Shown: positions 23,744 to 38,612 of the stretch, piece by piece
Layout of the letters: each line of letters opens with the position of its first letter
How positions within the stretch are numbered: position 1 is the first letter of the stretch
NCBI GenBank assembly: GCA_965217895.1
Contig: CBDCJV010000002.1
Coordinates: 3,232,001-3,296,000 of the forward strand
Origin: Waterburya sp.
GTDB taxonomy: Bacteria > Cyanobacteriota > Cyanobacteriia > Cyanobacteriales > Xenococcaceae
DNA length: 64,000 nt
Reading direction: 5' to 3'
The notes under the pieces: generated by a model
The model's input: the letters and a program-made list of their open reading frames with translations, nothing else
Database searches by the model: none
What the model was told of the DNA's origin: nothing
Made by a program: the position numbers and the translations under genes

Positions 23744-24307
23744 TTGCTGGCGAAAAACGGCTATCCTGGTAATTTTCTTAACAAGAATAATTGTAATATT
23801 TTGGACAGTAGTGTGATTAAAGTTAGATTTGCTATTCCTGATGAAGCATCCCTAATTTATAAATTTATTCAAACAAAAGCCGAGTTTGATCGCGGTATTG
23901 GGGCTTATTCAGGAGTAATTGAAACTTCTGACGACAAGATACGCAAAACAATTTTTCGCAATAATCCCTTTGCTTATGTTCTGTTTGCCGAAATTGAGCA
24001 AAATACAATTGGATTTGCGCTATATGGATTTAGATATTCTTCTTTTACAGGACAACCTAGTATTTGGTTAGACGATTTGTATGTCGAGCAAAACATGAGA
24101 AGCAAGGGTGCAGGAAGTTTATTAATGAGCGAACTACAGCAAATTGCTCATAAAAACAATTGTACTCATTTAGCCTGGACGGCGGATAATAGAAATATTC
24201 GCGGACTAAAGTTTTATCATGGTTTAGGTGTAAAAATTATCGAACAACAGGGCGATCGCTGTTTTTTCCAATGGAGTTTGCCAAGACAAAACTCTGCATC
24301 CAAATGA
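23744..24307 (+). CDS. GNAT family N-acetyltransferase
   Basis: WLDDLYV, RSKGAG acetyl-CoA motif, N..GLKFY; true start probably the later GTG near 23812. Confidence 0.88.
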   Translation: MLAKNGYPGNFLNKNNCNILDSSVIKVRFAIPDEASLIYKFIQTKAEFDRGIGAYSGVIETSDDKIRKTIFRNNPFAYVLFAEIEQNTIGFALYGFRYSSFTGQPSIWLDDLYVEQNMRSKGAGSLLMSELQQIAHKNNCTHLAWTADNRNIRGLKFYHGLGVKIIEQQGDRCFFQWSLPRQNSASK

Positions 24308-24480
24308 GAAAGCGCACCGCCTACACTAAGGTTTGGCGACTCGTAAAGACGGAGCAAGTTGTTGAGGCTTTTGTTATCCGAAAGCTAATTCCCAATCTTT
24401 GGCAGAGCGCAGCCGTCGCTTAGGATAACTATAGTATTTACAAAGCGAAGTAGGCCTTTTTATCTCTTACCTCTTACTTC

Positions 24481-27400
24481 TTAACCTGTATTTCGCATTC
24501 CCGCAGCAATGCCGTTAATAGTTAACATAGCTCCCCGCAATAGTTCTTCTTTACTAAAGCGGAAGTGAAGTGCCTGAGACTTATCATGCTGACGTAAACG
24601 CTTGATTAAAGCCACCTGCAAAAAGCCCAAGGGAATAATAGTACCGTTACGCAACTGAACCGATCTTTGTAGTTCAGGATCGCCGTCTAGCAGTTTCATT
24701 TGACCATTAATTTTAAGAATTAAATCTCTGGTTAAATAATATTCCTGAGCAATTTGCGTAAATAGCTTGTGAAAACGCTCTAAATCTTCTGGCTGAGATA
24801 GTTCATTGACATAATGTTCGGCTATTTGCAGATCGACTTTGGCTAAGGTCATTTCAACTTTGGAAATCAGTACTCTAAAAAAGGGCCATTTGACATAGAA
24901 GTATTTGAGCAGATCGAGATTTTTTTCTGGCTCTTGGTCTAAAAATCCTTGTAAAGCCGAACCAACTCCATACCAAGCAGGTAATAAAAATCGGCTTTGA
25001 GTCCAGCTAAATACCCAGGGAATAGCCCGAAGACTACTCATATCTTTTTTCTTATTTGGATCATTTCCCTTGCCAGGACGTTTAGAGGGACGAGAGCCAA
25101 TCTGTAGCTGGCTAATTACGTCTACTGGGGTAACAGAATGAAAGAAATCAACAAAATCTGGATTCTCGTAAATTAAAGCTTTGTATACAGTACGCGATCG
25201 CGCGGATAGTTCTTCCATGATTTGATTCCAAGGCTCAACGCGATCAAATCCACTCCCTAGTAAACTTGATTGGATCACCGCCGTAGTCATAGTTTCTAAA
25301 TGATACAGAGCCAATTCAGGCAATGAATATTTGGATGCTAATACCTCTCCCTGTTCGGTAATTTTAATTCTGCCCTTAATAGTATCCGTTGGCTGCGCCA
25401 AAATCGCCGAATAAGCAGGGCCTCCACCACGACCAACTGAGCCTCCACGACCATGAAAAATCCGCAGCGAAATACCAAATTCGGAGGCAACTTGCTGTAA
25501 TGCTCGTTGCGCCTTATGAATCTCCCAATTACTGCTTAAGAAGCCTGAATCCTTATTGCTGTCAGAGTACCCTAACATCACTTCCTGGAGATCGTTGGGC
25601 TTTAGGGTGACTTGTTGCAAATTATTTTTATCTTTAGCTGCCGATACGCAACTGTATCCACCAGAAAGAGCAGCACGATAGAAAGGTAGCCTAAATAACT
25701 CCTCCATTACCTCAGGCGCGCGTTTAAGATCTTCTACCGTCTCAAAAAGAGGCACAATTCTGACGCTTGTATTACAGGTAACAGGATCGTATAGTCCTGC
25801 TTCTTGAGAGAGCAACAGTACTTCTAAAACATCACTCACAAAATTAGTCATGCTAATAATGTATGTCTGACATATACCCTGCCCAAATTCCTGCTGGAGC
25901 AAACGTAACATTCTAAAGGTTTCAATGGTTTCACAAGCAGTTTCAGAAAATGGCATTTCCGCAGGAATTAATGGTCTGCGGGTTTTTAATTCCTGAATTA
26001 GCCAGGCAGTTTTATCTGCCTCAGACAGGTCTTCGTAGGGTCTGGGAAGAACCTGTAAATAGGCAGTTATTTCGGCGATCGCTTCTGAATGCCGAGATGA
26101 ATCTTGACGAAAATCTAGCTCTACCAAAGTAAAGCCATATACTTCTGCTTGGCAAATCAAATTATCTAGCTCACGACACTGTAAACTAGTTGCAGCCAGG
26201 CTACTCTGCATCAATTTTAGCTCGGCGACAAATTCTGCTCCCGAAGCGTAAATATTATCGGTATTAATTTCTGAGATTGCCTGTCTACCCGCCACAGAGG
26301 ACAAGGCTTGATTCCGCTCCCAGGTGTTTTTAAGCCTTTGAGCAATATATGCCAGCTTTAGACGATAGGGTTCTTGACGATAACGAATTGCTAATTCTTC
26401 ATAGATTCCAGACATTTGCTGATGATCTTGTTCTAAAGAGTCCAAAAGCTCTTGTCTAACATCGCTCCAGTGCAGAGAAAGACTTAGTAGCTCTCGCAGT
26501 TGCTCGATAGACTTAAGATATTTCTCAATGACGATACTTCTTTGGTAACAGGCAGTTTCCCAGGTTACTTGCGGGGTAACAAAAGGGTTGCCATCGCGGT
26601 CTGAACCTACCCAAGAGCCGAAATAGCAAAAGTTATGAGTGGGAGCAACTAAACCAGGAAAAGAGTCTGCTAAAGACTGTTTGAGGCGAGTTGCCAATTG
26701 AGGTATCACGTCAAACAAGACTTCTTGAAAATAGTGCAGCGAGTAATCTACTTCGTCTAATACTTTGGGCTTAAACTGATGTAGCTCGTCTGTACGCCAC
26801 CAAAGGCGAATTTCTTCTGTCAACTGACCTGTAGCTTCGTTAGCCTCCCAAGAGTCAGCTAGTCCAACTTCCCGCATTACTTCTTCGGCAGCATCCAACT
26901 GCTCTAAAAGGTGAGATATACGTCGTTGCTTTTTGCGAATGGTATGGCGCACAATTTCGGTAGGGTGAGCCGTAAACACCAGACGAATATCTAGCTGATC
27001 TAATAACCTCTGTAGCATTAGAGGTGGCATATTAATCTCTTTAAGATAAGGGAAAAGCCAGTGAAATAAACCTGCTTGGTTACTGCTAGATATAGTCGGT
27101 TCAACCCAGTTGCCTTCAAGCTGCTCTATTTGAGGTTGAGTTATGGCTGTAGCCGTCTTGTCGGCTTTAGAACCATTACCATTGTGGTTAGATGAGGATA
27201 GTTTATGGGTAGCACGACGAGCCTGTTTTTGTTCTCTAGATTCATAGTGTTGTTCAACTATATTAGTCAACTGAAAATAAAGGGCAAATGCTCTAGCTGC
27301 ACCAATAGCGTCATTTAAACTTAGCTTCTCGATTAACTGTGGCACTGTCGATTGGGGAAATGTCTCTGTTACTTGCCCTTCGGCAGAAGAAAGCGATCGC

Positions 27401-27564
27401 ATTTTTTGCAGCAGATCGAGCATTTCCTGACCACATTCAGAACGCAGTACAGACTTCCAAAGATCCTCAATTAACTTTTGTCGATGATGCAACAGCAGAT
27501 AAGAAGCAGCAAGTACCCTTTCTTTTTCTTGGTTGGCTATGGAAGATTGAACAACCGAACTCAT
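24481..27564 (-). CDS. ppc: Phosphoenolpyruvate carboxylase
   Basis: [46 protein letters not shown], terminal MRNTG. Confidence 0.98.
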
Positions 27565-27836
27565 AAAGACCTCTGCTTGGCGTATGTATGTCGTGAATTT
27601 GGTAACAATTGTAATTGTTCAAGATTTAGCGTTCCAAAATGGCTATATTTGTCATCACCGTGGCAATAGCTCTATTCTTTGGTTAAACAAAATCTTGAAT
27701 CTTGATTGAAAAAAAATTTGACTGACAATATCTCAGATTATTATATTGAGGCGGTAGTCCTGGCAAGTATACCACCGCAATCAAGCTTAAATATAACTTC
27801 TAGCTTACACTACTTTATAATCAAAACTGAGTTTAT

Positions 27837-28028
27837 CTATTTATTGTCAAAGTTAGGGAAATTTAACAGAGGCAAACGTTCTGAGCGAAATATTTCTTCA
27901 CTAGCTTTGCCCAATTCGGTCATAAATTCAGTTAATAGATACAAAGTCAAAATACTGAAAATAAAAGGGCTAGTGGCGATACTTAATCCCAGAAAAGACA
28001 GTAGGCAAGATGTATTGTTAGACTTCAT
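27837..28028 (-). CDS. Small conserved cyanobacterial membrane protein
   Basis: One hydrophobic segment then LGKASEEIFRSERLPLL, a motif I recognise from small cyanobacterial hypotheticals. Confidence 0.65.
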   Translation of the reverse strand: MKSNNTSCLLSFLGLSIATSPFIFSILTLYLLTEFMTELGKASEEIFRSERLPLLNFPNFDNK

Positions 28029-28167
28029 CAGTTTAGTTTGTATGTATTCTTTACTTACTATTGTATGAATTTTAAGCTTTTCTAGAACAAAGTTAAACTA
28101 TTTTTTCTTTGACCTAATATCTACCAGACAAATTTACGACTTCTTAGCCAATACTTGGCATAATTCA

Positions 28168-28962
28168 ATGAAACAGACAATAATTCAGGTAGATGCTTTT
28201 ACCGATCGGATTTTTCAAGGAAATCCTGCTGCTGTGTGCGTGCTTGAATCCGAGCGAGATGAGCAGTGGATGCAGTTAGTAGCTCAAGAAATGAATCTAT
28301 CAGAAACAGCCTTTTTGCTTAGACAAGATCGGCACTACATATTGCGCTGGTTTACCCCCACCACAGAAGTTCCTTTATGTGGTCACGCAACTCTTGCTTG
28401 CGCCCACGTGCTTTGGACAGAAGGTTATGCTTCTACAGGACAAGCGATCGGTTTTCAGACCAAAAGTGGCTTGTTGACAGCCAAATATCAGGAAAATTGG
28501 ATTGAATTAAATTTTCCAGCTAATCGATCGCAAGATATTCCCCCCATTACTAAGCTACAAGATGCTTTGGGAGTAGGGATTAAAACCTTTGCTTATAATT
28601 CTTTAGGATATCTGGTAGAAATTCAGTCTTCTAAGCAGCTAGAACAGCTAAAACCTAATTTTGCCCTCTTAAAACAATTGCCGATATCTAACGTTATTGT
28701 CACAAGTTTGGCAGCCGAAAACTCAGAATACGACTTTGTTTCTCGATTTTTTGCCCCTGGACTAGGCATAGATGAAGATCCTGTAACTGGTGCTGCTCAT
28801 TGTTGCCTTGCTCCTTATTGGCGCGATCGCCTGCAAAAGGATGACTTTTTGGCTTATCAAGCCTCAAGTCGTGGCGGAGTAGTTAAAGTTCACTATGACG
28901 GAGGCGATCGCGTTTTTCTCCAGGGACAAGCAGTAACCGTAATGCGGGGAGAGTTTCAGTAA
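28168..28962 (+). CDS. PhzF family epimerase/isomerase
   Basis: QVDAFT, GNPAAV, EMNLSETAF, LCGHATLA, EDPVTG. Confidence 0.94.
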   Translation: MKQTIIQVDAFTDRIFQGNPAAVCVLESERDEQWMQLVAQEMNLSETAFLLRQDRHYILRWFTPTTEVPLCGHATLACAHVLWTEGYASTGQAIGFQTKSGLLTAKYQENWIELNFPANRSQDIPPITKLQDALGVGIKTFAYNSLGYLVEIQSSKQLEQLKPNFALLKQLPISNVIVTSLAAENSEYDFVSRFFAPGLGIDEDPVTGAAHCCLAPYWRDRLQKDDFLAYQASSRGGVVKVHYDGGDRVFLQGQAVTVMRGEFQ

Positions 28963-29065
28963 GCAGTAATTCAAGAAGTGCGCGATCGCTCTAATGTTCG
29001 TTTAAACAATGTATAGAATTTAATATATACAACAATTAAATTCAAAATTAATTACTTGAATTATA

Positions 29066-29401
29066 GTCTTCTTATGAAGCGTCTTAAAATTGGTCGAAAA
29101 TACTCCCATTTGCACCGATTTAGTGACTCGTCCCAGCTTGGTTGAGTCTGGCGCGCAGGTAATTGATCAACTTTTTATTTCAAAAGGCAGTATTGCGACC
29201 GCTGGTGAGCGTTTATCATCTCAATATCTTGCTGCTTGGATCATTCATCGGCGTTTAGGGCGAGAATCTGTTGTAGAAGCTTTAAGCTACGTTACTCCTA
29301 TTGGCGAAAAGCAAAGTTTGATTGAGCGTGTATTTGGAGCAATTGAAACGGATGCCAAAAGTGTTCCTACCTCAAGGCATGACAAGCTGACAGCCTTATA
29401 A
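29066..29401 (+). pseudogene. C-terminal fragment of a DJ-1/PfpI family protein
   Basis: TPICTDLVT..GSIATAGERLSSQYLAAWII..ALSYVTPIGEK resembles DJ-1/PfpI C-halves; N-terminal half absent; apparent frameshift near 29089. Confidence 0.65.
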
Positions 29402-29666
29402 TAAGTAGTGTATGCTGCTCAGTTATCGGTGAGGGCGCAGTCATAAAGTTAACTGTTGTTCTCAGCATCGAAGTACTGTGAGGCTATGAGTGAAATGGTG
29501 CTTTGTTTTTTTGATAGGACAATTCGGTATCGAATCAGCTTTAAACTATGAGGTGCATGAAGATTCGTAACACTCCAAAGTTAAAGTGTCACTAGCAAGA
29601 ATAATATTTAGGAATAGGCATTCTATTGGTAAAAACTATCCTGAAAAATAATGGAAGGTTGGAGTA

Positions 29667-30047
29667 ATGGATGAGCAACCTCGCTACTTACGAATTGCCC
29701 TTGTTGTCGTTGGAATTGCATTTCTTCTTATCTATCCATTGATGAAAGTCTGGTCATCGGGCTGGGTATGGCAACCGGAGCAATACGAAGATGCACAGAT
29801 GATCGTTGGCATTTATGCGACGCTCGGTGCCTTTTTGCTATGGGCTTCCCGCAAACCAGAAGCGCATCTCAGTTTAATCTGGTTCACCGTCTGGTCGAGT
29901 GTAGTCCACGGGCTGATCATGGCAGTACACACAGTGATTGACCCTGCGGAACGTGGACACCTCGTCGGAGATATTCCAGCATTGCTTTTGGTGGCAATTG
30001 TCCTTGGTTTTCTGGCATCACGCGAAGTAGTGCCAGCGCGTGAATGA
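29667..30047 (+). CDS. Small four-helix membrane protein (DUF6632-like), cassette-type gene
   Basis: GGAG RBS; WSSGWVW, MIVGIYATLG, SLIWFTVWSSVVHG, GHLVGDIPAL; more GC-rich than its flanks, no HIP1; attC begins 6 bp after the stop. Confidence 0.8.
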   Translation: MDEQPRYLRIALVVVGIAFLLIYPLMKVWSSGWVWQPEQYEDAQMIVGIYATLGAFLLWASRKPEAHLSLIWFTVWSSVVHGLIMAVHTVIDPAERGHLVGDIPALLLVAIVLGFLASREVVPARE

Positions 30048-30052
30048 GCGCA

Positions 30053-30138
30053 GCATAACAAATCAAATGCAGCGGACAGACAAAAGCTCTGAGTGCTGAG
30101 CTAAAAACATCTGCTGCCACTGATTTGAGCCGTTGGGC
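30053..30138 (+). mobile_element. Integron attC recombination site (86 bp)
   Basis: R'' GCATAAC - 5 nt - L'' AAATGCAG ... L' CTGATTT - 5 nt - R' GTTGGGC; L'' minus one G is the exact reverse complement of L'; imperfect central stem. Confidence 0.85.
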
Positions 30139-30256
30139 AGCAACACTATTAATAAAGTTCAGCATTGGTAAACTGCTGTGCTTTTTTAGCATTAGCGGCT
30201 TCTCCACAACTGCGAGGAGTCGGAAAAATCTTGCCTGGATTTGCTAATCCCTTTTC
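30138..30256 (-). pseudogene. Displaced second copy of the glcD 3' end
   Basis: Diverged direct repeat of 30980-31096; encodes EKGLANPGKIFPTPRSCGEAANAKKAQQFTNAELY*. Confidence 0.93.
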
Positions 30257-30299
30257 TATACATTTGGTACAATCGAGGGATACATCCTAGATTAATTCT

Positions 30300-30617
30300 A
30301 TGACTGTCGTCGCAACAAAACCATATGTAGAGTTCAAAAAACAAGGGTACTGGATTATTGGTACTCGAATTTCTTTGGACTCTATTGTTTATGCTTTCCG
30401 CAAAGGTCTACCTCCTGAAAGCATTGCTCAAGCATATCCTTTACTCGATCTAGAAAAGGTATACGGAGCAATCACATTTTACCTAGCTAACCGTTCTGAT
30501 ATCGATGCTTACCTGATATTAGAGGAGCAGGCCTTTGATGCCATGCCACAGCCCTTACAGATAGATGCTCCTTCTTTACATCAAAAGTTAATTGCTGCCA
30601 GGGAGTCAGCACGGTAA
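30300..30617 (+). CDS. DUF433 putative antitoxin
   Basis: IIGTRISLDSIV, GLPPESIAQAYP.L.LEKVYGAITFY. Confidence 0.9.
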   Translation: MTVVATKPYVEFKKQGYWIIGTRISLDSIVYAFRKGLPPESIAQAYPLLDLEKVYGAITFYLANRSDIDAYLILEEQAFDAMPQPLQIDAPSLHQKLIAARESAR

Positions 30618-30622
30618 GCATA

Positions 30623-30976
30623 ATGGCAAGCGTTCAATTTCAAGCTGATGCCGATCTAAATCAAGCGATCGTGACAGGAGTTATCCGCCGACAGCCCAAC
30701 ATCAACTTTCAAACCGCTACTGAAGCAAATTTAGAAGGACTACAAGATGCAGAAGTATTGGATCTATCAGCTAAGCAGCAGCGTATTTTAGTGACCCACG
30801 ATCGTAGAACAATGCCGACTGAATTTGCAGAATTCATAGTCGGTAGACAAAGTTCAGTTGTGCTGATTGTCTCCCAGAAGACAGCTTTAGAAACTATTAT
30901 TGAAGAATTGATTTTAATTTGGTCAGTAACCACAACAGAAGAATGGATCAACCGAATTGCTAAGATTCCCTTGTAA
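30623..30976 (+). CDS. DUF5615 PIN-like putative toxin
   Basis: FQADADLN, DAEVL, RILVTHD; 5 bp after DUF433. Confidence 0.9.
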   Translation: MASVQFQADADLNQAIVTGVIRRQPNINFQTATEANLEGLQDAEVLDLSAKQQRILVTHDRRTMPTEFAEFIVGRQSSVVLIVSQKTALETIIEELILIWSVTTTEEWINRIAKIPL

Positions 30977-30991
30977 AGACAGCTAACACTA

Positions 30992-32482
30992 TCAATAAAG
31001 TTCAGCATTGGTAAATTGTGCTTTTTTAGCATTAGCTGCTTCTCCACAACTGCGAGGTGTGGGAAAAATCTTGCCTGGATTAGCTAATCCCTTTTCGTTT
31101 AAAGCAGCGCGAATATACTGCATTGTTTCTAAGTCAGTAGCATTAAACATATAGGGCATATAGCAATTCTTATCTGCACCGATACCATGCTCTCCCGATA
31201 AACTGCCTCCCGCATCAACACATAGCTTCAATATCTCTCCGCCAATTTCTTCTACTGTTGCAAATGCTCCTGGCACAGAATTGTCGTAGAGAATTAGAGG
31301 GTGAAGGTTGCCATCTCCAGCATGAAAGACATTAGCAATTTTATAGCCATAGCGATCGCCTAAAGCATTTATTTCTGCTAAGACTTCGGCAAGCTTAGTC
31401 CGAGGAATCACCCCATCCTGGACAAAATAGTCAGGACTTATATGTCCAGCAGCAGCAAAAGCAGCCTTTCTACCCTTCCAGAGTTTAGCCCTAGTGTCAA
31501 TATCATTAGCAGTAGTGATCCCAGTAGCATTATTCTGCTGGCAAATTGCCTCTACTTTTTGCTTGTAGGCTTTTACCTCTACTTTTAAACCATCTAACTC
31601 GATCAGCAAAACCGCCTGAGCATCACGGTCATAACAACCAGTAGCTACAATATCTTCTACGGCATTGATACTCAAATTATCCATAATTTCCATGCCCGCA
31701 GGAATAATACCCGAACTAATAATATCAGCTACGGCTGCACCAGAATCTTCCACAGTGGGAAAGTTTGCCAGCACTACACATACAGATTCTGGACGTTTAA
31801 GGATGCGCAGAGTTACCTCGGTAGCAATGCCTAATGTGCCTTCTGAGCCAACAAACAAGCCAGTTAAATCATATCCAGGCATTTCAGGGACAATACCGCC
31901 AACGTCAATAATTGAACCATCGGTAGTAACGATTTTTAAACCCAATACATGATTAGTTGTTACACCATATTTAAGACAGTGAACGCCTCCAGAATTTTCT
32001 GCCACATTACCGCCAATAGAACAAATAATCTGGCTAGAAGGATCGGGAGCATAATAAAAACCTGCACCACTAACTGCCTGAGTTACCCAGTTGTTGATTA
32101 CTCCTGGCTGAACCGTAATATAGTGATTATCTAAATCTTGATGCAGAATGCGATTCATTCTGGCGGTGACGATTAATACACAGTCTGGGGCGGGTAATGC
32201 TCCTCCAGACAAACCTGTCCCTGCACCTCTGGCAACCCAGGGTAAATTATTGTCATGACAAACTTTAACTGCTGCTGCCACTTCTTCTGTGGTGCGGGGT
32301 AAAACTACCAAGGCTGGACGCTGACGATAGCTAGCTAGACCATCGCATTCATAGGTCAATAACTCTTCTTTGCGACGTACTACCCCGTCTTTACCGACTA
32401 CAGTTTCTAACTGTTTGATGATTGGCTGCCATTTGTCTTTAATGCCTGGAAAAAACTTACTAAATAACATCGCCATGACCAA
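30992..32482 (-). CDS. glcD: Glycolate dehydrogenase FAD-linked subunit
   Basis: RGAGTGLSGG, APDPSSQ, GSEGTLG, FHAGDGNLHP, GEHGIG, NPGKIFP. Confidence 0.93.
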   Translation of the reverse strand: MVMAMLFSKFFPGIKDKWQPIIKQLETVVGKDGVVRRKEELLTYECDGLASYRQRPALVVLPRTTEEVAAAVKVCHDNNLPWVARGAGTGLSGGALPAPDCVLIVTARMNRILHQDLDNHYITVQPGVINNWVTQAVSGAGFYYAPDPSSQIICSIGGNVAENSGGVHCLKYGVTTNHVLGLKIVTTDGSIIDVGGIVPEMPGYDLTGLFVGSEGTLGIATEVTLRILKRPESVCVVLANFPTVEDSGAAVADIISSGIIPAGMEIMDNLSINAVEDIVATGCYDRDAQAVLLIELDGLKVEVKAYKQKVEAICQQNNATGITTANDIDTRAKLWKGRKAAFAAAGHISPDYFVQDGVIPRTKLAEVLAEINALGDRYGYKIANVFHAGDGNLHPLILYDNSVPGAFATVEEIGGEILKLCVDAGGSLSGEHGIGADKNCYMPYMFNATDLETMQYIRAALNEKGLANPGKIFPTPRSCGEAANAKKAQFTNAELY

Positions 32483-32558
32483 ATCTCTGTTAATTTACCC
32501 GTATTAACAATGATATCTGACTATCAATATCTGACGTTACGTATTTAATCTAACTGCT

Positions 32559-32650
32559 GTGACGGGGTGACGAGGTGACTGGGTGACTGGGTGACTGGGA
32601 GAACCTTCGGTCTTGCCGAGATCGCCAAGTCCCCAAGTCCCCAAGTCCCT
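32559..32650. repeat. Paired octamer tandem repeats (GGGTGACT and CCAAGTCC types)
   Basis: About five GGGTGAC(T/G) units, a short spacer, then three CCAAGTCC units. Confidence 0.8.
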
Positions 32651-32681
32651 AAAATCGATGAGTGCGTAACATCGGTTAATA

Positions 32682-32888
32682 TTACTTTTTATAGGCTTTA
32701 GCTGAAGCGGAAATCCAAGTAAAAGCAGCAATACCAAACGGTAACAGAATAAAAATTGCTCCAGAAGCTACAGGATGGGTTCTAATGGTCATGCTAGAAC
32801 TCATAATTCCTAATCCTAAACCACAGTAGACTAAGCCGATTAAAGGAATACCCAGAACTAATAAAGCAAATTTTCGATCTGAATTCAT
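32682..32888 (-). CDS. Small two-helix membrane protein
   Basis: 68 aa, ATG start, two hydrophobic segments. Confidence 0.65.
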   Translation of the reverse strand: MNSDRKFALLVLGIPLIGLVYCGLGLGIMSSSMTIRTHPVASGAIFILLPFGIAAFTWISASAKAYKK

Positions 32889-33056
32889 AAATTATAATGT
32901 TCTAAGAACTATTAATTAACTTAGCAGATATTTGCTTGGCGATCGCGCTATCTTGAATCTTATTATTTAGTTCAAGATCAAAAGTCTTCTAAAGTCGCTA
33001 GAATCAACATAAGTTAACCAAAATAATTAGCTTGTTGGCTTAAGCTAAGTAATCTT

Positions 33057-34247
33057 ATGAGCGAAAAATCGCGTATTTGTATCGTTGGTGGTGGATTTGG
33101 GGGTTTATATACTGCTTTGAGGCTGAGTGAATTCCCTTGGCAAAACGGAACCAAGCCAGAAATTACTCTGATTGATAAAAGCGATCGCTTTTTGTTTTCT
33201 CCCCTGTTGTATGAACTGATCACCGAAGAAATGCAAAGTTGGGAAATAGCACCACCCTTTGCTGAAATTTTGGCAAATACAGGGGTGATCTTTCAGCAGG
33301 GTAGCGTTACCGATATTGATGTTGAAGCCCAAAAAGTCACTGTCGATGACGATCTAACAATCGATTACGATAAATTGGTTTTGTCCACAGGTGGCAAAAC
33401 TCCTGTAGACATTGTATCAGGGGCAAAGGAACACGCTCTCCCGTTTCGTTCTTTAAACGATGCCTATCGTTTACAGGAAGAACTAAGATTACTAGAAGAA
33501 GCTAACCCCGATAAAATTAGAGTGGCAGTAGTTGGCGGTGGTTATAGCGGGGTAGAGTTAGCTTGTAAGCTAGCAGCCCGTTTAGGTGAAAAAGGCAGAA
33601 TTCGCATTATAGAAAGAGGAGAACGGATACTCAAAGACAGTTCTGATTTCAATCGTGAAACTGCCATCAAAGCCTTGACAGAAAATCATATTTGGCAGGA
33701 TTTAGAAACAGAGGTAGCACAGGTTGAGGCTGACAGCATATCTCTTGAATATAAAGGGCAAACTGATGTCATACCCGTAGATTTGGTATTGTGGACAGTT
33801 GGTAGCCAGATTTCGGAGTTAATTACTAAACTTCCTTTAGAACAAAACGAAAAAGGGCTGCTTAAAATTGAACCCAACCTGTTAGTCAAGGGTAGAGATG
33901 ATATCTATGCGATCGGTGATGTGGCTGACTGCTACGATACTGAGGGCATATCAGTCCCCGCTACGGCACAGGTAGCTTTTCAACAGTCTGACTATTGTGC
34001 CTGGAATTTGTGGGCATCTGCTACTAACCGTCCCTTGTTATCTTTTCGCTATCAGCCTTTAGGTGAAATGATGACTTTGGGAGTAGATAACGCCACGATC
34101 AGCGGTTTGGGCATAAAATTTGATGGTTCAATGGCTTATATAGCCCGTCGCTTAATCTATCTCTATCGTTTACCAACTTTAAAACATCAGCTAACGGTCG
34201 GACTAAACTGGATTACTCAACCTCTAGTTGAACTATTGTCATCTTGA
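33057..34247 (+). CDS. ndbB: Type II NAD(P)H dehydrogenase, NdbB/NDC1 type
   Basis: GGGFGGLYTALRL, PLLYEL..EMQSWEIAP, GGGYSGVELA, ATAQVAFQQ. Confidence 0.85.
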   Translation: MSEKSRICIVGGGFGGLYTALRLSEFPWQNGTKPEITLIDKSDRFLFSPLLYELITEEMQSWEIAPPFAEILANTGVIFQQGSVTDIDVEAQKVTVDDDLTIDYDKLVLSTGGKTPVDIVSGAKEHALPFRSLNDAYRLQEELRLLEEANPDKIRVAVVGGGYSGVELACKLAARLGEKGRIRIIERGERILKDSSDFNRETAIKALTENHIWQDLETEVAQVEADSISLEYKGQTDVIPVDLVLWTVGSQISELITKLPLEQNEKGLLKIEPNLLVKGRDDIYAIGDVADCYDTEGISVPATAQVAFQQSDYCAWNLWASATNRPLLSFRYQPLGEMMTLGVDNATISGLGIKFDGSMAYIARRLIYLYRLPTLKHQLTVGLNWITQPLVELLSS

Positions 34248-34302
34248 TATACTGTGGCAATTTATAGGTAGGGAATAATAGCTATAGTAAAAAGATATCC
34301 CC

Positions 34303-35478
34303 ATGTCTGATGCAAAATTCATACCGCCCCAGTTAAATCCTCTATTTACGCGTTTAATCCAAAGTGTTTTCTATCTTGTGGCTTACTTTGGCTACAAAAT
34401 AAAATTCGTAATTGGCGATCGCGACGTGGCTCAATTAAAAGCAATTTCTCATCAGCGAGTAGTTTATCTGCCAAATCATTCTAATCTAGATGATGGACTG
34501 GTAGTATTTCTTTTGTCTGCACGTTTAGGGCAGCTTTTTCACTATATTGTCGCTTACGAAGCCTTTCAAGGCTTAATTGGCAAGCTAATGCCCAAAGTAG
34601 GAGTTTATTCAATTCGGCGCGGAGTTGGCGATCGCTCTAGCATCAGGCAAACTTTGGAGATACTTCAGCAGCCTGGATCTAAGCTGGTGATTTTTCCAGA
34701 AGGCGGTTGCTCCTATCAAAATGATACCGTAATTCCCTTTCGCACAGGAGCAATTGAGCTATCTTTTAAGGCGATGGAAAAGCTAATCAAACAAGAAGCA
34801 GATATACCCAATTTTTATTTAGTACCTGTAAGCTTAAAATATACTTATCCCCAGGCTACAAATGCCCAAATTGCCGAATCTCTAGGCGGTTTGGAAGCAG
34901 CTTTATCCATCCAGCCAGCCAAAGATTTTTATTTACGCTTAAGAGCTATATCTGCTCAAGTATTAGCCAATTTAGAAGCGGAATATAATGTAACTCCTGT
35001 CGATTTAACAGACTGGAATCAACGCATTGAATATCTGAGAAAGCATTTACTAGACTACTGCGAAAAGAAACTAGATATTACACCTGCAACTGAGTTACCG
35101 AATCGAGAAAGGATTTATAAGGTTCAGGCAATTTTAAGATCTTTAGATGATACTACAGCTAAACAATCTCAGATAAACTACGAACATCTTTATCAAACTA
35201 CTGTTCGCTTGCTCAATTTTGATGCTGTTTACGATGGTTACGTAGCAGCCAAGCCTACCCCAGAAAGGTTTTTTGCTACTTTAGATCGTCTTGAAAGAGA
35301 AGTATTTAATATAGATCGACCTAAACTCAAAGGATTACGTCAGGCAGTTGTTAAAACTGGTACACCAATTAATCTTAAAAAATATTATCAAAATATAAAC
35401 CATGATTCTTCTCGCCAACAAACAATTAATAATTTAACTCAAGAAATACAGCAACAAGTTCAAGCGTATCTAAATTAG
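34303..35478 (+). CDS. Phospholipid/glycerol acyltransferase (PlsC-like)
   Basis: NHSNLDD (HX4D), IFPEG. Confidence 0.88.
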   Translation: MSDAKFIPPQLNPLFTRLIQSVFYLVAYFGYKIKFVIGDRDVAQLKAISHQRVVYLPNHSNLDDGLVVFLLSARLGQLFHYIVAYEAFQGLIGKLMPKVGVYSIRRGVGDRSSIRQTLEILQQPGSKLVIFPEGGCSYQNDTVIPFRTGAIELSFKAMEKLIKQEADIPNFYLVPVSLKYTYPQATNAQIAESLGGLEAALSIQPAKDFYLRLRAISAQVLANLEAEYNVTPVDLTDWNQRIEYLRKHLLDYCEKKLDITPATELPNRERIYKVQAILRSLDDTTAKQSQINYEHLYQTTVRLLNFDAVYDGYVAAKPTPERFFATLDRLEREVFNIDRPKLKGLRQAVVKTGTPINLKKYYQNINHDSSRQQTINNLTQEIQQQVQAYLN

Positions 35479-35597
35479 GGCGTATCATTAATTAGAAAAA
35501 AGTACAGACTGTGTAGAGTGCCTTTAACGTAAGCCTAACGCACCAACATTTAAATTTAAAATTTTATTGGATTCTTATTCCCTAGCCAAATCAACCG

Positions 35598-36320
35598 TTG
35601 CTCATGACACTCTCATTATCAACCCAAAATTTACCAAACGTGATCTTTTTAGATGCTATGGGAACACTATTCGATCTCAAAAGCAGCGTTGGCGAAATAT
35701 ATCAAGAATACGCCCTCAAATATGGAGTAAAAGTAGATGCCAAATTACTCAATAGTGCTTTTCTTAACAGCTTTAAATCTGCTCCTCCCTTAGCATTTTC
35801 CGCCACTGAATTAGAGTCAATTAAGCAACAGGAATTTGCTTGGTGGAAAAATGTAATTCAGATTACATTTGCACAGATTGGTGTACTAGAAAATTTTAGT
35901 AGTTTTGCCAATTTTTTCCAGGATATATATTTATATTTTGCTACTAAAGAACCTTGGTATGTATTCTCCGATGTGATTCCTACTTTGCAGCTTTGGCAGC
36001 AGCAAGGCATTCAATTAGGAGTTATATCTAATTTTGATACTCGCTTAATTACTGTGCTAAGGTTGCTTAAATTAGAGCAATTTTTTACTAGTCTGACAAT
36101 TTCTTCCGTTGTAGGATATGCAAAACCCGACCAGAATATTTTTGAAATTGCTTTAAAGAAACACTACATTACTGCTAAACAAGCATGGCATATTGGAGAC
36201 AGTCTGATTGAAGATTATCAAGGAGCAAAGAACGCAGGAATTAGCTCATTTTGGTTAAATCGTGATTCATTTTCATTGGATATTGAAAATCAACTACCCA
36301 ATTTAAGTAGTCTGGGATAA
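35598..36320 (+). CDS. HAD family hydrolase
   Basis: FLDAMGTL, ISNFD, KPD, HIGDS..EDYQGA. Confidence 0.9.
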   Translation: MLMTLSLSTQNLPNVIFLDAMGTLFDLKSSVGEIYQEYALKYGVKVDAKLLNSAFLNSFKSAPPLAFSATELESIKQQEFAWWKNVIQITFAQIGVLENFSSFANFFQDIYLYFATKEPWYVFSDVIPTLQLWQQQGIQLGVISNFDTRLITVLRLLKLEQFFTSLTISSVVGYAKPDQNIFEIALKKHYITAKQAWHIGDSLIEDYQGAKNAGISSFWLNRDSFSLDIENQLPNLSSLG

Positions 36321-36384
36321 ACTTGTCTTTATATTGCTTTATATATGCACTTTTACGAAGTTCAAAAAACGGGGGACAGAAGCT

Positions 36385-37269
36385 TTGGACACAGCTAATC
36401 AGCAAAGGATTCTCGGATATTTTATCGAAGAAGCGAAAGAACATTTGCAAACCTTGGAGCAAGGCATTTTACAGCTAGCAACATCTGTCAAAGATGCAGA
36501 AACCGTTAATGAAATGTTTCGGGCTGCTCATTCAGTTAAGGGTGGTGCTGCAATGCTGGGTTATACAAGTATTCAAAAAACTGCTCACCGTTTAGAAGAT
36601 TCTTTTAAAATTCTTAAAGACAATCCTGTAGATGTCGATCAAAAGCTAGAAACACTCTTCCTCAATGGCTACGATCATCTTCAAGATCTAATTGAGCGTC
36701 TAGAAAACTCTGCCAATTTTAGCGATAGAGATGCTGTAGAAATTTTAGAGCAGGCAGAATCTAATTTTGCTTTATTAGATCAATATCTTCAACAGTTACT
36801 ATCAGGTAGTTCAGCAGAAGATGCCGATCTTAGCCAAAAAGTAACCGTAATCCTTAAACAAATGTTGCTATTGTTTAAGCAGCCAGATAGCCCAGAAAGC
36901 AGACAAAAACTGCATCTTGCCTGTAAAAAGCTGGGCGAACTAGCACCTAATGAAGCAAATTGGCAAAAGTTGGTAGCTACAACTCAAACAGCAATCACTA
37001 ATAAAAAATATCCTTATAACACTATCGCCCAGGTAGTTATCAAGGAAATCAAGCAGGCAGGAGACTTTTTAAACTCTGGTCAAACAAATAAATTAGTTCC
37101 TAGCAAAAATCTACAGCAGCTAGCAGCATCGGCTGGGGGGACTGCTGGTGCTGTGGTCAGTACAGTATCTATACCAAAAGATCCCCAGGGCGCAGCATTG
37201 GCGTTATTGAAAACCTTCAACAAGCAGGAAATTATGCAGATATTCCAAATTATCAAAAGTCGAATTTGA
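36385..37269 (+). CDS. Stand-alone Hpt (CheA P1-like) domain protein
   Basis: YFIEEAKEHL, FRAAHSVKGGAAM, AHRLED; probable TTG start at 36385 after GGGGGA; no kinase domain. Confidence 0.85.
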   Translation: MDTANQQRILGYFIEEAKEHLQTLEQGILQLATSVKDAETVNEMFRAAHSVKGGAAMLGYTSIQKTAHRLEDSFKILKDNPVDVDQKLETLFLNGYDHLQDLIERLENSANFSDRDAVEILEQAESNFALLDQYLQQLLSGSSAEDADLSQKVTVILKQMLLLFKQPDSPESRQKLHLACKKLGELAPNEANWQKLVATTQTAITNKKYPYNTIAQVVIKEIKQAGDFLNSGQTNKLVPSKNLQQLAASAGGTAGAVVSTVSIPKDPQGAALALLKTFNKQEIMQIFQIIKSRI

Positions 37270-37348
37270 TTAATATTTCCTGACCTAATGTTAGATTTGT
37301 CAATTTAATATATGTAATAATAAGAACTTAATAAACTAAGTTCATTGA

Positions 37349-37630
37349 TTGCTATTAGCTGTGTTTCAATTCGCTGTCCATTTTGCCAGTTTATTCAAAC
37401 CAGTAATGCTCCAGCTTCGTTTTGTTGGGGCTTGTTCTGTGTTAGGACTTTTTGCCTGGAGTTTGCTAAGTTTTGTTAGGGATACGGTAGCCAGAGCTAA
37501 AGAAATGCACCAGATTCCCTGCACTAAATGCCGTTTTTTTACTGGAGATTATCGTCTTAAATGCACCGTAAATCCTCATGTTGCTAATACCGAGCAAGCA
37601 ATTGATTGTCCAGACTATCGAAATAATTAA
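37349..37630 (+). CDS. Small cyanobacterial membrane protein with a four-cysteine motif
   Basis: TM helix then HQIPCTKCRFFTGDYRLKCTVNP...AIDCPDY. Confidence 0.75.
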   Translation: MLLAVFQFAVHFASLFKPVMLQLRFVGACSVLGLFAWSLLSFVRDTVARAKEMHQIPCTKCRFFTGDYRLKCTVNPHVANTEQAIDCPDYRNN

Positions 37631-37643
37631 TTTAAGTCACAGA

Positions 37644-38612
37644 TTAGTTTGATTCTGCTGATTGTCCTGTTAACTGGTAAAACTTTTCTCGTCCCTCGTT
37701 GTATCTGTTGCTGGGATAGCCCATTACCTGATGGATAATCCATTTTTGAGGCTTACCATCTTTGAGCAATAAAGCGATCGCCATTTCCAGAATTTCATCA
37801 TCATCTAAGCAGTTCTCGGCAAAGAAACTACTAGTTTTACGAAAGCTGCTCTTGCTATTTTCCCTATCTAAATAAAGGTACATTGTGGCAAGCAAGTCTT
37901 TAAAAGATTTAGGTTTGTCTTTTTCTGGCATAATTTTTGACCAGTCTGATTCTGAGATCTGCTTTAGGTACTTATTTTGACTATCTTTAGAAGTCATCTT
38001 TCTTGTCAGCGGTTTCAGCCTAGTCGGATTTGCCTGAAGAATATGACAATACAGATAATCTATTGCTACACCTTGTAGTAAAGCTTCACCTAAAAACTGT
38101 AAATGCTTGTCGGTGGCAGAATGTTCTAACTCTGGTTTGAGATATTTTTTTAACATTGGCACAATCAAACGTTTGTGTAGCCAGTTGCGTGTCTGAGAAA
38201 AACCGCGATCAATAAAAATTGCGCCAACTAAAGCCTTAAGTCCCTTTTCAAAAGGATTATTTTGTTTAACCCTCAAACGATGTCTTTCTTCTGTTAAAGC
38301 CAAAAATGGATATGCCTCCCCAAGCTGAAGATCGTACCAAAGTGTAGTCAACCTCTCTGTTTCAATCATTTTATCCTGCAACGCCTTGAGCTTACCAACT
38401 TGAAAATGGGAAAAGTTCTTAAAAAGATAATCAGCTACGACTAAATTTAAAATCGTTTCACCGAGATATTCTAAACGCTGATTATTAATTTCAGGCTCAT
38501 TAAGTTGCTTGGCATAGGAAGGATGAATTAGAGCTAGGCGAAGGGTTTGATCGTATTTAAAGTTTATGCCGATTTTGTTTTCTACTGGCGACGCTTGCCA
38601 ATTATCACTCAT
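37644..38612 (-). CDS. Protein with two tandem degenerate ribonuclease III domains
   Basis: ALIHPSY..NNQRLEYLGE..LKALVGAIFIDRG, then HLQFLGEALL..FKDLLATMY; no dsRBD seen; likely start MSDNW at 38612. Confidence 0.8.
   Translation of the reverse strand: MSDNWQASPVENKIGINFKYDQTLRLALIHPSYAKQLNEPEINNQRLEYLGETILNLVVADYLFKNFSHFQVGKLKALQDKMIETERLTTLWYDLQLGEAYPFLALTEERHRLRVKQNNPFEKGLKALVGAIFIDRGFSQTRNWLHKRLIVPMLKKYLKPELEHSATDKHLQFLGEALLQGVAIDYLYCHILQANPTRLKPLTRKMTSKDSQNKYLKQISESDWSKIMPEKDKPKSFKDLLATMYLYLDRENSKSSFRKTSSFFAENCLDDDEILEMAIALLLKDGKPQKWIIHQVMGYPSNRYNEGREKFYQLTGQSAESN

Follow-up and report, generated by a model that had tools for sequence, protein, structure and literature searches.

A putative toxin–antitoxin module between two alleles of the glcD 3' end in a Waterburya genome, and its probable entry by one homologous crossover

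How does a small gene pair come to lie between two copies of the end of a conserved gene when no integrase or transposase gene adjoins it? This question was raised by a 64,000-nt stretch of Waterburya sp. DNA (GenBank assembly GCA_965217895.1, contig CBDCJV010000002.1, positions 3,232,001 to 3,296,000), referred to as the window, to which bare coordinates refer. In the window, two small adjacent genes of the DUF433 and DUF5615 families, which we take to be a putative type II toxin–antitoxin pair of PIN type, are enclosed by a direct repeat of the 3' end of glcD, the gene for a glycolate oxidase subunit. The locus sits on the 5.2-Mb contig (C2) of a two-contig genome (labeled G000). Our preferred answer, to which we assign a probability of roughly 0.55, is that a small circle brought in the module together with the glcD tail of a relative and integrated by one homologous crossover, with no integrase. 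The glcD locus is one case of a widespread pattern.

The two copies of the glcD end, both on the reverse strand, were designated copy A (30138–30256) and copy B (30980–31096). The earlier note on this DNA had described direct repeats of about 118 bp around the DUF433–DUF5615 pair, and alignment reproduced them with exactly the substitutions that it listed. Each repeat covers the last 34 codons of glcD, the stop codon, and 11–12 nt beyond it, and the copies are 91.7% identical across 120 aligned columns. All five coding substitutions (GCA/GCT, CCG/CCC, ACT/ACA, GCC/GCA, and CAG/CAA) are synonymous, which corresponded to P = 0.0012 in 20,000 neutral simulations. The stop codon is swapped (TAA in copy A and TGA in copy B), and a single in-frame 3-nt indel distinguishes AQQF (copy A) from AQF (copy B). 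From the alignment and the open reading frame (ORF) listing, copy B is the working tail of glcD (30992–32482, reverse strand), which is intact and single-copy by TIGR00387 (569.5 bits; cut-off, 567.9) and BLAST. Copy A is an orphan tail, with the 34 codons and the extra Gln, and BLAST placed the tail just twice in the genome, at these two copies.

The seven differences between the copies were compared with four sister genomes. Four differences had both states among the sisters, two were private to copy A, and one was private to copy B. The copies differ from each other at seven positions and from the relatives at 5–8, and they do not cluster together relative to the sisters. As proposed in the earlier note, the copies are alleles of different lineages, not a decayed duplication; the grouping of both copies apart from all relatives, which the note had named as evidence to the contrary, was not seen.

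The note had also named a chimeric assembly of two strains as a possible source of the duplicate. In runs X4 and X5, which represent one sample (possibly the source of the assembly, with several related strains inside), the joint that creates the duplicate lies within single unitigs. The X4 unitig (30221–31023) joins 36 nt of copy A to the module and the X5 unitig (30212–31023) joins 45 nt, both with 0 differences, and their depths match those of the left unitig (203.3 vs. 203.7 for X4 and 35.5 vs. 36.4 for X5). The joint is therefore present in the run data, and an assembly chimera is unlikely. The left unitig (28990–30167) reaches just 30 nt into copy A, and none of the run pieces listed spans the whole repeat; thus, the linkage on the side of the neighboring DUF6632 cassette rests on the assembly and on the equal depth. 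Runs X2 and X3 had small word shares, and X3 barely covers the stretch. A joint that skips the module was not found in four runs, which has no bearing on excision, as contigs drop rare variants.

A lineage with the pair beside glcD and without the duplicate, predicted in the earlier note, exists. Four close genomes of the same genus were compared (G017, G019, G020, and G023; glcD 93–96% identical), and G017, as well as the soil run X1, carries the same module, an extra stretch, and then glcD, with no duplicate. The module of G017 is 95.9% identical over 755 nt. The glcD case is useful because this duplicate-free allele fixes the joint to the base. By comparison with G017, the joint is TTTTC (30252–30256, forward strand), which occurs in both glcD and the module leader and forms part of an imperfect match (about 16 of 21 nt). 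The 5 bp of exact microhomology lie inside the 3–10 bp of homology-facilitated illegitimate recombination (HFIR). A shuffled spacer equaled the match at the joint window in about 1% of 300 trials, and the duplex energy of the joint ranked 4th of 617 pairs. Nothing was deleted, and the insert is flanked by a direct repeat of part of the homologous region. The joint is not at the palindrome HIP1 (GCGATCGC, core CGATCG), of which the nearest core is at 30666. The G017 leader was considered as a decayed glcD tail and rejected, as the same leader stretch precedes the module at an unrelated gene in Leptolyngbya (locus L145). For the same reason, the position of the joint, about 5 nt from the start of other cassette copies, is not evidence for an integrase. 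A DNA pattern for the clade's glcD end matched 0 metagenome contigs.

In the proposed course of events, an integron integrase would once have put the DUF433–DUF5615 cassette about 12–17 nt past the glcD stop in a G017-type lineage, as the homologs indicate (the timing is conjectural), while other lineages would have received other cassettes at the same spot. A chromosome fragment may then have closed into a circle of about 0.84–0.93 kb, with the TTTTC of glcD joined to the TTTTC of the leader. This circle may have recombined with the glcD end of a recipient that carried the DUF6632 cassette, leaving glcD intact and the other tail stranded. The attC hairpin of the module would have been lost between two AACAC repeats (the difference itself is observed), so that the module would no longer be cut out as a cassette. 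Speculatively, the repeats could loop the module out, which toxin activity would oppose.

If the module entered on a circle, the tail should be duplicated, the two copies should be reciprocal mosaics, and no donor tract should lie upstream. No donor-like tract was found upstream: at 31297–31696, 36 of 398 positions differ from G017, compared with 20–26 of 400 for the other three sisters. G017 matches copy A at four sites in the body of the tail and copy B at the stop, as expected if the crossover fell within the stretch of 22 identical nt next to the glcD stop.

To place the locus in its genome, 2,924 mechanically called ORFs of at least 200 aa on contig C2 were scanned with their last 300 nt for an orphan copy (minimum 45 nt and 78% identity) lying up to 8 kb downstream. 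Downstream orphan 3' tails were found for 20 genes, including mutS, uvrB, mfd, cysS (with two orphan tails), bacA, and a chelatase. The controls gave two 5' copies upstream, one 5' copy downstream, one 3' copy upstream, and one mid-gene copy (20 3' tails vs. two 5' ends, Fisher p = 1.2e-4), and a stricter rerun without the orphan filter gave 12 vs. 2. Some of the 20 may be paralog debris (TPR, SDR, and TetR genes). The inserts are mostly 0.1–6 kb, and toxin–antitoxin families were present in the cargo of nine of the 20 (69 of 78 references scanned), as a plain count, not an enrichment. In eight of the 20, the repeat starts at most 6 nt from CGATCG. The expected share is 2.4% (p = 1e-8), and 4.8% if it is taken from the same genes (p = 2e-6); the genome carries 5,798 HIP1 sites. 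The earlier note had predicted duplicated 3' ends with synonymous-only divergence across the genome. The tails were found, and the divergence at glcD is atypical: the pooled changed codons were 99 synonymous and 81 non-synonymous (99/180), against 25 ± 3% synonymous under neutrality. Outside the 20, we observed a 121-bp near-terminal repeat in clpB (C2:3672958-3674381) and a duplicated 5' end whose orphan contains a stop codon (C2:3596337-3600821), both with mostly synonymous changes, besides a few other 5' or internal repeats. CRISPR-like repeat arrays met in the repeat scan (C2:4485556-4496708) were excluded.

Eight further loci were searched in four or five relatives, of which two (L083 and L085) were uninformative. 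Empty sister alleles with the orphan's downstream flank were found at four loci: a symporter gene (tail followed by the orphan's flank in three of four sisters, with G019 sharing the insertion), bacA (G017 and G020), a SpoU-family gene (G019), and a Pyr_redox gene (G017). As empty sister alleles carry the orphan flanks, the orphan is usually the resident end, and the cargo and working tail are the newcomer. At mutS (L077, C2:167928-169117), the end codons of the working copy differ from those of all four sisters, whose C-terminus is that of the orphan, which indicates that the insertion changed the MutS C-terminus. In the 5' part, the sisters agree with the working copy by 9:1, and in the 3' part with the orphan by 7:2 (p = 0.005), a clearer switch than at glcD. 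By analogy with these loci, copy A at glcD is likely the displaced resident end, and the module with the working tail the newcomer. The note's claim that a foreign glcD end arrived with the module is thus supported, with a direction that at glcD itself is likely by analogy. Selection probably accounts for the surplus of 3' tails over 5' ends, because entry at the 3' end would leave the promoter of the gene untouched. Tails can also be stacked: at uvrB (L088, C2:4172957-4174767; L112), a degenerate inner tail, shared with G023, follows a DUF433–DUF5615 module, and an outer tail follows further cargo. A reading of the G023 uvrB locus as a duplicate-free allele was withdrawn, because a 68-bp orphan tail is present there too. 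Away from the main gene, the symporter tail was observed in further copies (G019:C2:2797440-2798395, twice, about 780 bp apart, and G020:C1:3471273).

In other cyanobacteria, the tails of three other genes enclose the same cassette, namely those of an ABC ATPase gene, cysS, and one unnamed gene. In genome G041, a 97-bp repeat, drawn from the end of an ABC-ATPase gene and the region downstream of it, encloses the module (86% identical) together with two more gene units; no close relative of that locus was present in 39 genomes. When 17 homologous loci were tested for bracketing repeats, gene tails were found at two, both in Leptolyngbya. L145 has a 101-bp repeat (94% identity) with its joint at HIP1 and no attC, and L143 (540-3739) has three tandem cysS tails with two DUF433–DUF5615 modules between them and a joint inside an attC arm. 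The repeat at L156 is the module's own start, not a gene tail.

Within the module, the DUF433 gene (30300–30617, forward strand) encodes a putative antitoxin of 105 aa (PF04255) and the DUF5615 gene (30623–30976, forward strand) a putative toxin of 117 aa (PF18480), both above the Pfam cut-off. Compared with G017, they have 8 synonymous and 2 non-synonymous codons and 11 and 2, respectively (19 and 4 in total), which indicates that the pair is kept together under purifying selection. The DUF5615 protein had no sequence match in the PDB, and its AlphaFold model, built from 14 sequences, had a predicted local distance difference test (pLDDT) score of 46, too poor for a structure search. In the leader, the −10-like box TACAAT (30268–30273, forward strand) is kept in the aligned leaders of homologous modules and may act as a promoter; it is absent from the list of the promoter scan, and the promoter and terminator scan of the locus was at chance level. 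A literature search on DUF433, DUF5615, and VapC45 found nothing, most subscription papers being outside its reach.

The pair is a former integron cassette. The attC that would follow its last gene is absent, and what is left is a scar (30981–30989, forward strand) consisting of the R'' box AGCTAAC and one AACAC; compared with G017, the 85 bp between two AACAC are gone. The G017 module is followed by a degenerate attC, and run X1 retains the extra stretch. Of 19 homologous module loci scored for attC, L148 and L159 beat all 100 shuffles and L152 reached p 0.02; at the others, the attC is degenerate, truncated, or absent, with the R'' box and left arm kept at several. The module copy in G041 has attC arms. 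In the available part of one report (10.1101/2022.09.11.507474), attC is described as easily lost by slippage. The note had claimed that no integrase or transposase is present. None adjoins the module among the ORFs listed at 24000–38000 (nine near the locus were profile-scanned), and no IntI match was found in 28000–33000; the claim needs refinement, as a cassette that lost its attC implies that an integrase acted earlier in its history. A complete integron integrase is absent from this genome and present in 4 of 39 genomes of the genus. A second canonical attC was observed at G000:C2:1075937 with intI stumps on both sides (1074449-1074612 and 1077485-1077621), apparently a decayed integron.

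Several observations weigh against entry on a circle. The crossover position is barely resolved at glcD (10 steps beside the stop vs. 11–12 elsewhere), and the glcD stop codon of X1 is unreadable in the run data. The fit of G023 to copy A is as good as that of G017, although G023 has no module; the alleles of the clade are mosaics, and the true donor and recipient lie outside the sampled genomes. Across the last 300 nt of glcD, 64–100% of shuffles contain a match as good as that of the joint, so that sites of this kind are common. The bacA copies are near-identical over their first 66 nt, where a plain circle from a divergent donor predicts otherwise, and 5' differences in orphans can be decay. 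PhzF, the gene on the far side of the DUF6632 cassette, and the 8 nt past its stop have G017 as their closest match, in keeping with the opposite direction of transfer. No circle appeared in the run data, which, being contigs, are unable to show one. Some of these points suit a newcomer module that came in by another path, by one-ended HFIR of linear DNA or by unequal crossover in a polyploid cell; copy B would be all donor and copy A all resident. One side would be a homologous exchange within glcD and the other an illegitimate TTTTC joint back into the recipient glcD. The joint has the size of microhomology reported for HFIR (3–10 bp, in the available text of PMC3240628), the bacA pattern agrees, and the resident haplotype would be coherent, with G023-like sequence in the spacer before the DUF6632 gene, in copy A, and in parts of the glcD body; the polyploidy of such cyanobacteria is mentioned in the available text of PMC4390886. 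On the other side, HFIR generally inserts with deletion, not duplication, according to the same part of PMC3240628, both module-carrying alleles share the state of copy A and not that of copy B at four sites, and glcD has no G017-like tract upstream. We consider this path unlikely.

The opposite direction, with the module resident, appears more unlikely still. Here, PhzF would have anchored an incoming block of spacer, DUF6632 cassette, and glcD tail, which was joined at TTTTC and took the place of about 72 nt. Run X1 indeed joins 28970 to 30252 with 72 letters between them, PhzF shares most of its single-partner sites with G017, the 30 nt that end at 28970 match G017 without a difference, and an insertion with a small deletion is the textbook outcome of HFIR. 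The G017-like signal, however, reaches the end of PhzF and leaves almost no donor-like anchor, the excess of 3' over 5' orphans would be unexplained, and at five other loci it is the orphan, not the working tail, that goes with the flank or ending of the sisters. A smaller chance is given to a transient integron integrase that inserted a circle of module, attC, and glcD tail at G/TT beside the DUF6632 attC, with the attC deleted later. Copy A starts at the R' core of that attC, as both copies do at the G041 locus, complete intI genes and stumps exist as described above, and IntI inserts at short GWT sites in the available part of 10.1101/2022.09.11.507474. The repeat must nevertheless end at the cassette site under any model, because the allele homology ends there, and the TTTTC joint that creates the duplicate is no att or GWT crossover. 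This route predicts a TAA donor, while G017 has TGA, and two strict attC hits on the contig are too few to account for 20 tails. An old local tandem duplication with decay, or a chimera of two strains, has the least probability of all. X4 and X5 do hold several related strains, but the synonymous substitutions (P = 0.0012), the four of seven shared polymorphisms, the ungrouped copies, and the joint in single unitigs of even depth already largely refute it.

The DUF6632 gene (29667–30047, forward strand; 126 aa, PF20337) is the cargo of a lone integron cassette, with attC directly after it (30053–30138, forward strand; R'' GCATAAC, L''/L' paired 7/7 with an extra G, and R' GTTGGGC). This attC, found by our own box scan and not by IntegronFinder, is one of two strict hits on the 5.2-Mb contig, compared with 0–1 in three shuffles, and its folding energy by itself was non-significant (z −1.17). 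The gene and its single attC, with an integrase nowhere near, correspond to a single attC lacking an integron integrase (SALIN). The PhzF-family gene (28168–28962, forward strand; PF02567, TIGR00654) is the conserved left neighbor of a variable gap, onto which PhzF and glcD converge in G000, G017, G020, and G023; PhzF is elsewhere in G019. The gap has four different contents across four of the five close genomes and is a cassette hotspot. In the window, the gap opens with a spacer (28963–29666) whose first 90–130 nt or so match G023 and G019, while the rest is unmatched in the compared loci and holds no integrase remnant. A 103-aa ORF in the spacer (29090–29401), possibly a remnant, had no Pfam match and was unmatched in the compared loci. 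In G020 and G023 (L004 and L005), the gap was observed to hold other short genes, SnoaL-like by eye, followed by an attC-like sequence (also by eye; very short in G020). An Rfam scan of 28900–31200 gave no match. Upstream of glcD (32559–32652), 8-nt units form two opposed runs, one GTGACTGG-like and one TCCCCAAG-like, which are matched by many other run contigs.

The minimal mobile elements of Neisseria are variable cargo between conserved genes, swapped by double crossover without duplication. PhzF and glcD flank variable cargo in the same manner, but the cargo of two alleles stands in tandem here. Islands that encode an integrase carry attL and attR repeats, which restore the 3' end of the target gene. 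At glcD, the gene is likewise intact and the old tail is displaced to the far side of the insert; in contrast to such islands, no integrase and no fixed target are present, with 20 host genes and one cassette family at four genes. In the available part of PMC4048246, an integrase with attL and attR is the criterion used for such islands. The glcD structure is a variant of a known recombination outcome, different from both an integrase island and classical HFIR. When E. coli received DNA with homology at one end, 56 of 60 clones were single crossovers of re-circularized DNA with duplications of 109–950 bp, and four of 60 were HFIR (Amarir-Bouhram et al. 2011, PMC3240628, in its available part). 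As in those single crossovers, a gene end (about 118 bp here) is duplicated around foreign DNA without a site-specific recombinase. That system, as far as the same text describes it, was laboratory E. coli with a conjugated plasmid and a selected marker, while the present case is natural and between species, at about 20 genes, some stacked, and HIP1-enriched. The glcD locus resembles HFIR, as described in the available parts of PMC3240628 and PMC2884548, in its homology at one end, microhomology at the other, and foreign DNA beside a conserved gene. It differs in that the resident DNA was kept and the gene tail doubled, while HFIR is described there as an insertion with a deletion of similar size; even under the opposite direction, 1,281 nt would stand in for 72 nt. 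The available part of Loot et al. (10.1101/2022.09.11.507474) describes the insertion of lone cassettes at short sites in the genome (SALIN/attG), and the DUF6632 gene with its lone attC and no integrase, the attC of homologous modules, and the loss of attC by slippage are alike. An integrase insertion as described there doubles no gene tail, and the module is attC-less and seems to move otherwise. In the available text of Elhai 2015 (PMC4390886), HIP1 is linked to site-specific and illegitimate recombination, with no evidence cited for homologous recombination, and gene capture does not come up in that text. Eight of the 20 tails here and that of L145 start at the HIP1 core, and the glcD joint does not lie at it. 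No description of displaced gene tails around toxin–antitoxin modules in cyanobacteria was found in the literature searched, most subscription papers being outside its reach.

A tentative extension of these results is that cyanobacteria may run a general, integrase-free capture of gene tails, in which small circles of whatever stands behind a core gene, with the last 50–300 bp of that gene, closed at HIP1 or another short match, re-enter the same gene of a relative by one crossover, repeatedly and in stacks. The single-crossover entry of re-circularized DNA is known to us solely from laboratory work in E. coli, and the tails would be its natural, genome-scale footprints. The enrichment of HIP1 at eight of the 20 tails makes a role for this long-unexplained palindrome testable, and glcD indicates that HIP1 is not required. 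If gene-tail capture is true, the abundance of HIP1 would supply closing sites, integron cassettes without attC would keep moving in this manner, and toxin–antitoxin pairs would persist because loop-out is resisted. The route would also swap the C-terminal codons of core genes between species, as at mutS, and it would account for the movement of toxin–antitoxin pairs and former integron cassettes from one cyanobacterium to another with neither an integrase nor a transposase.

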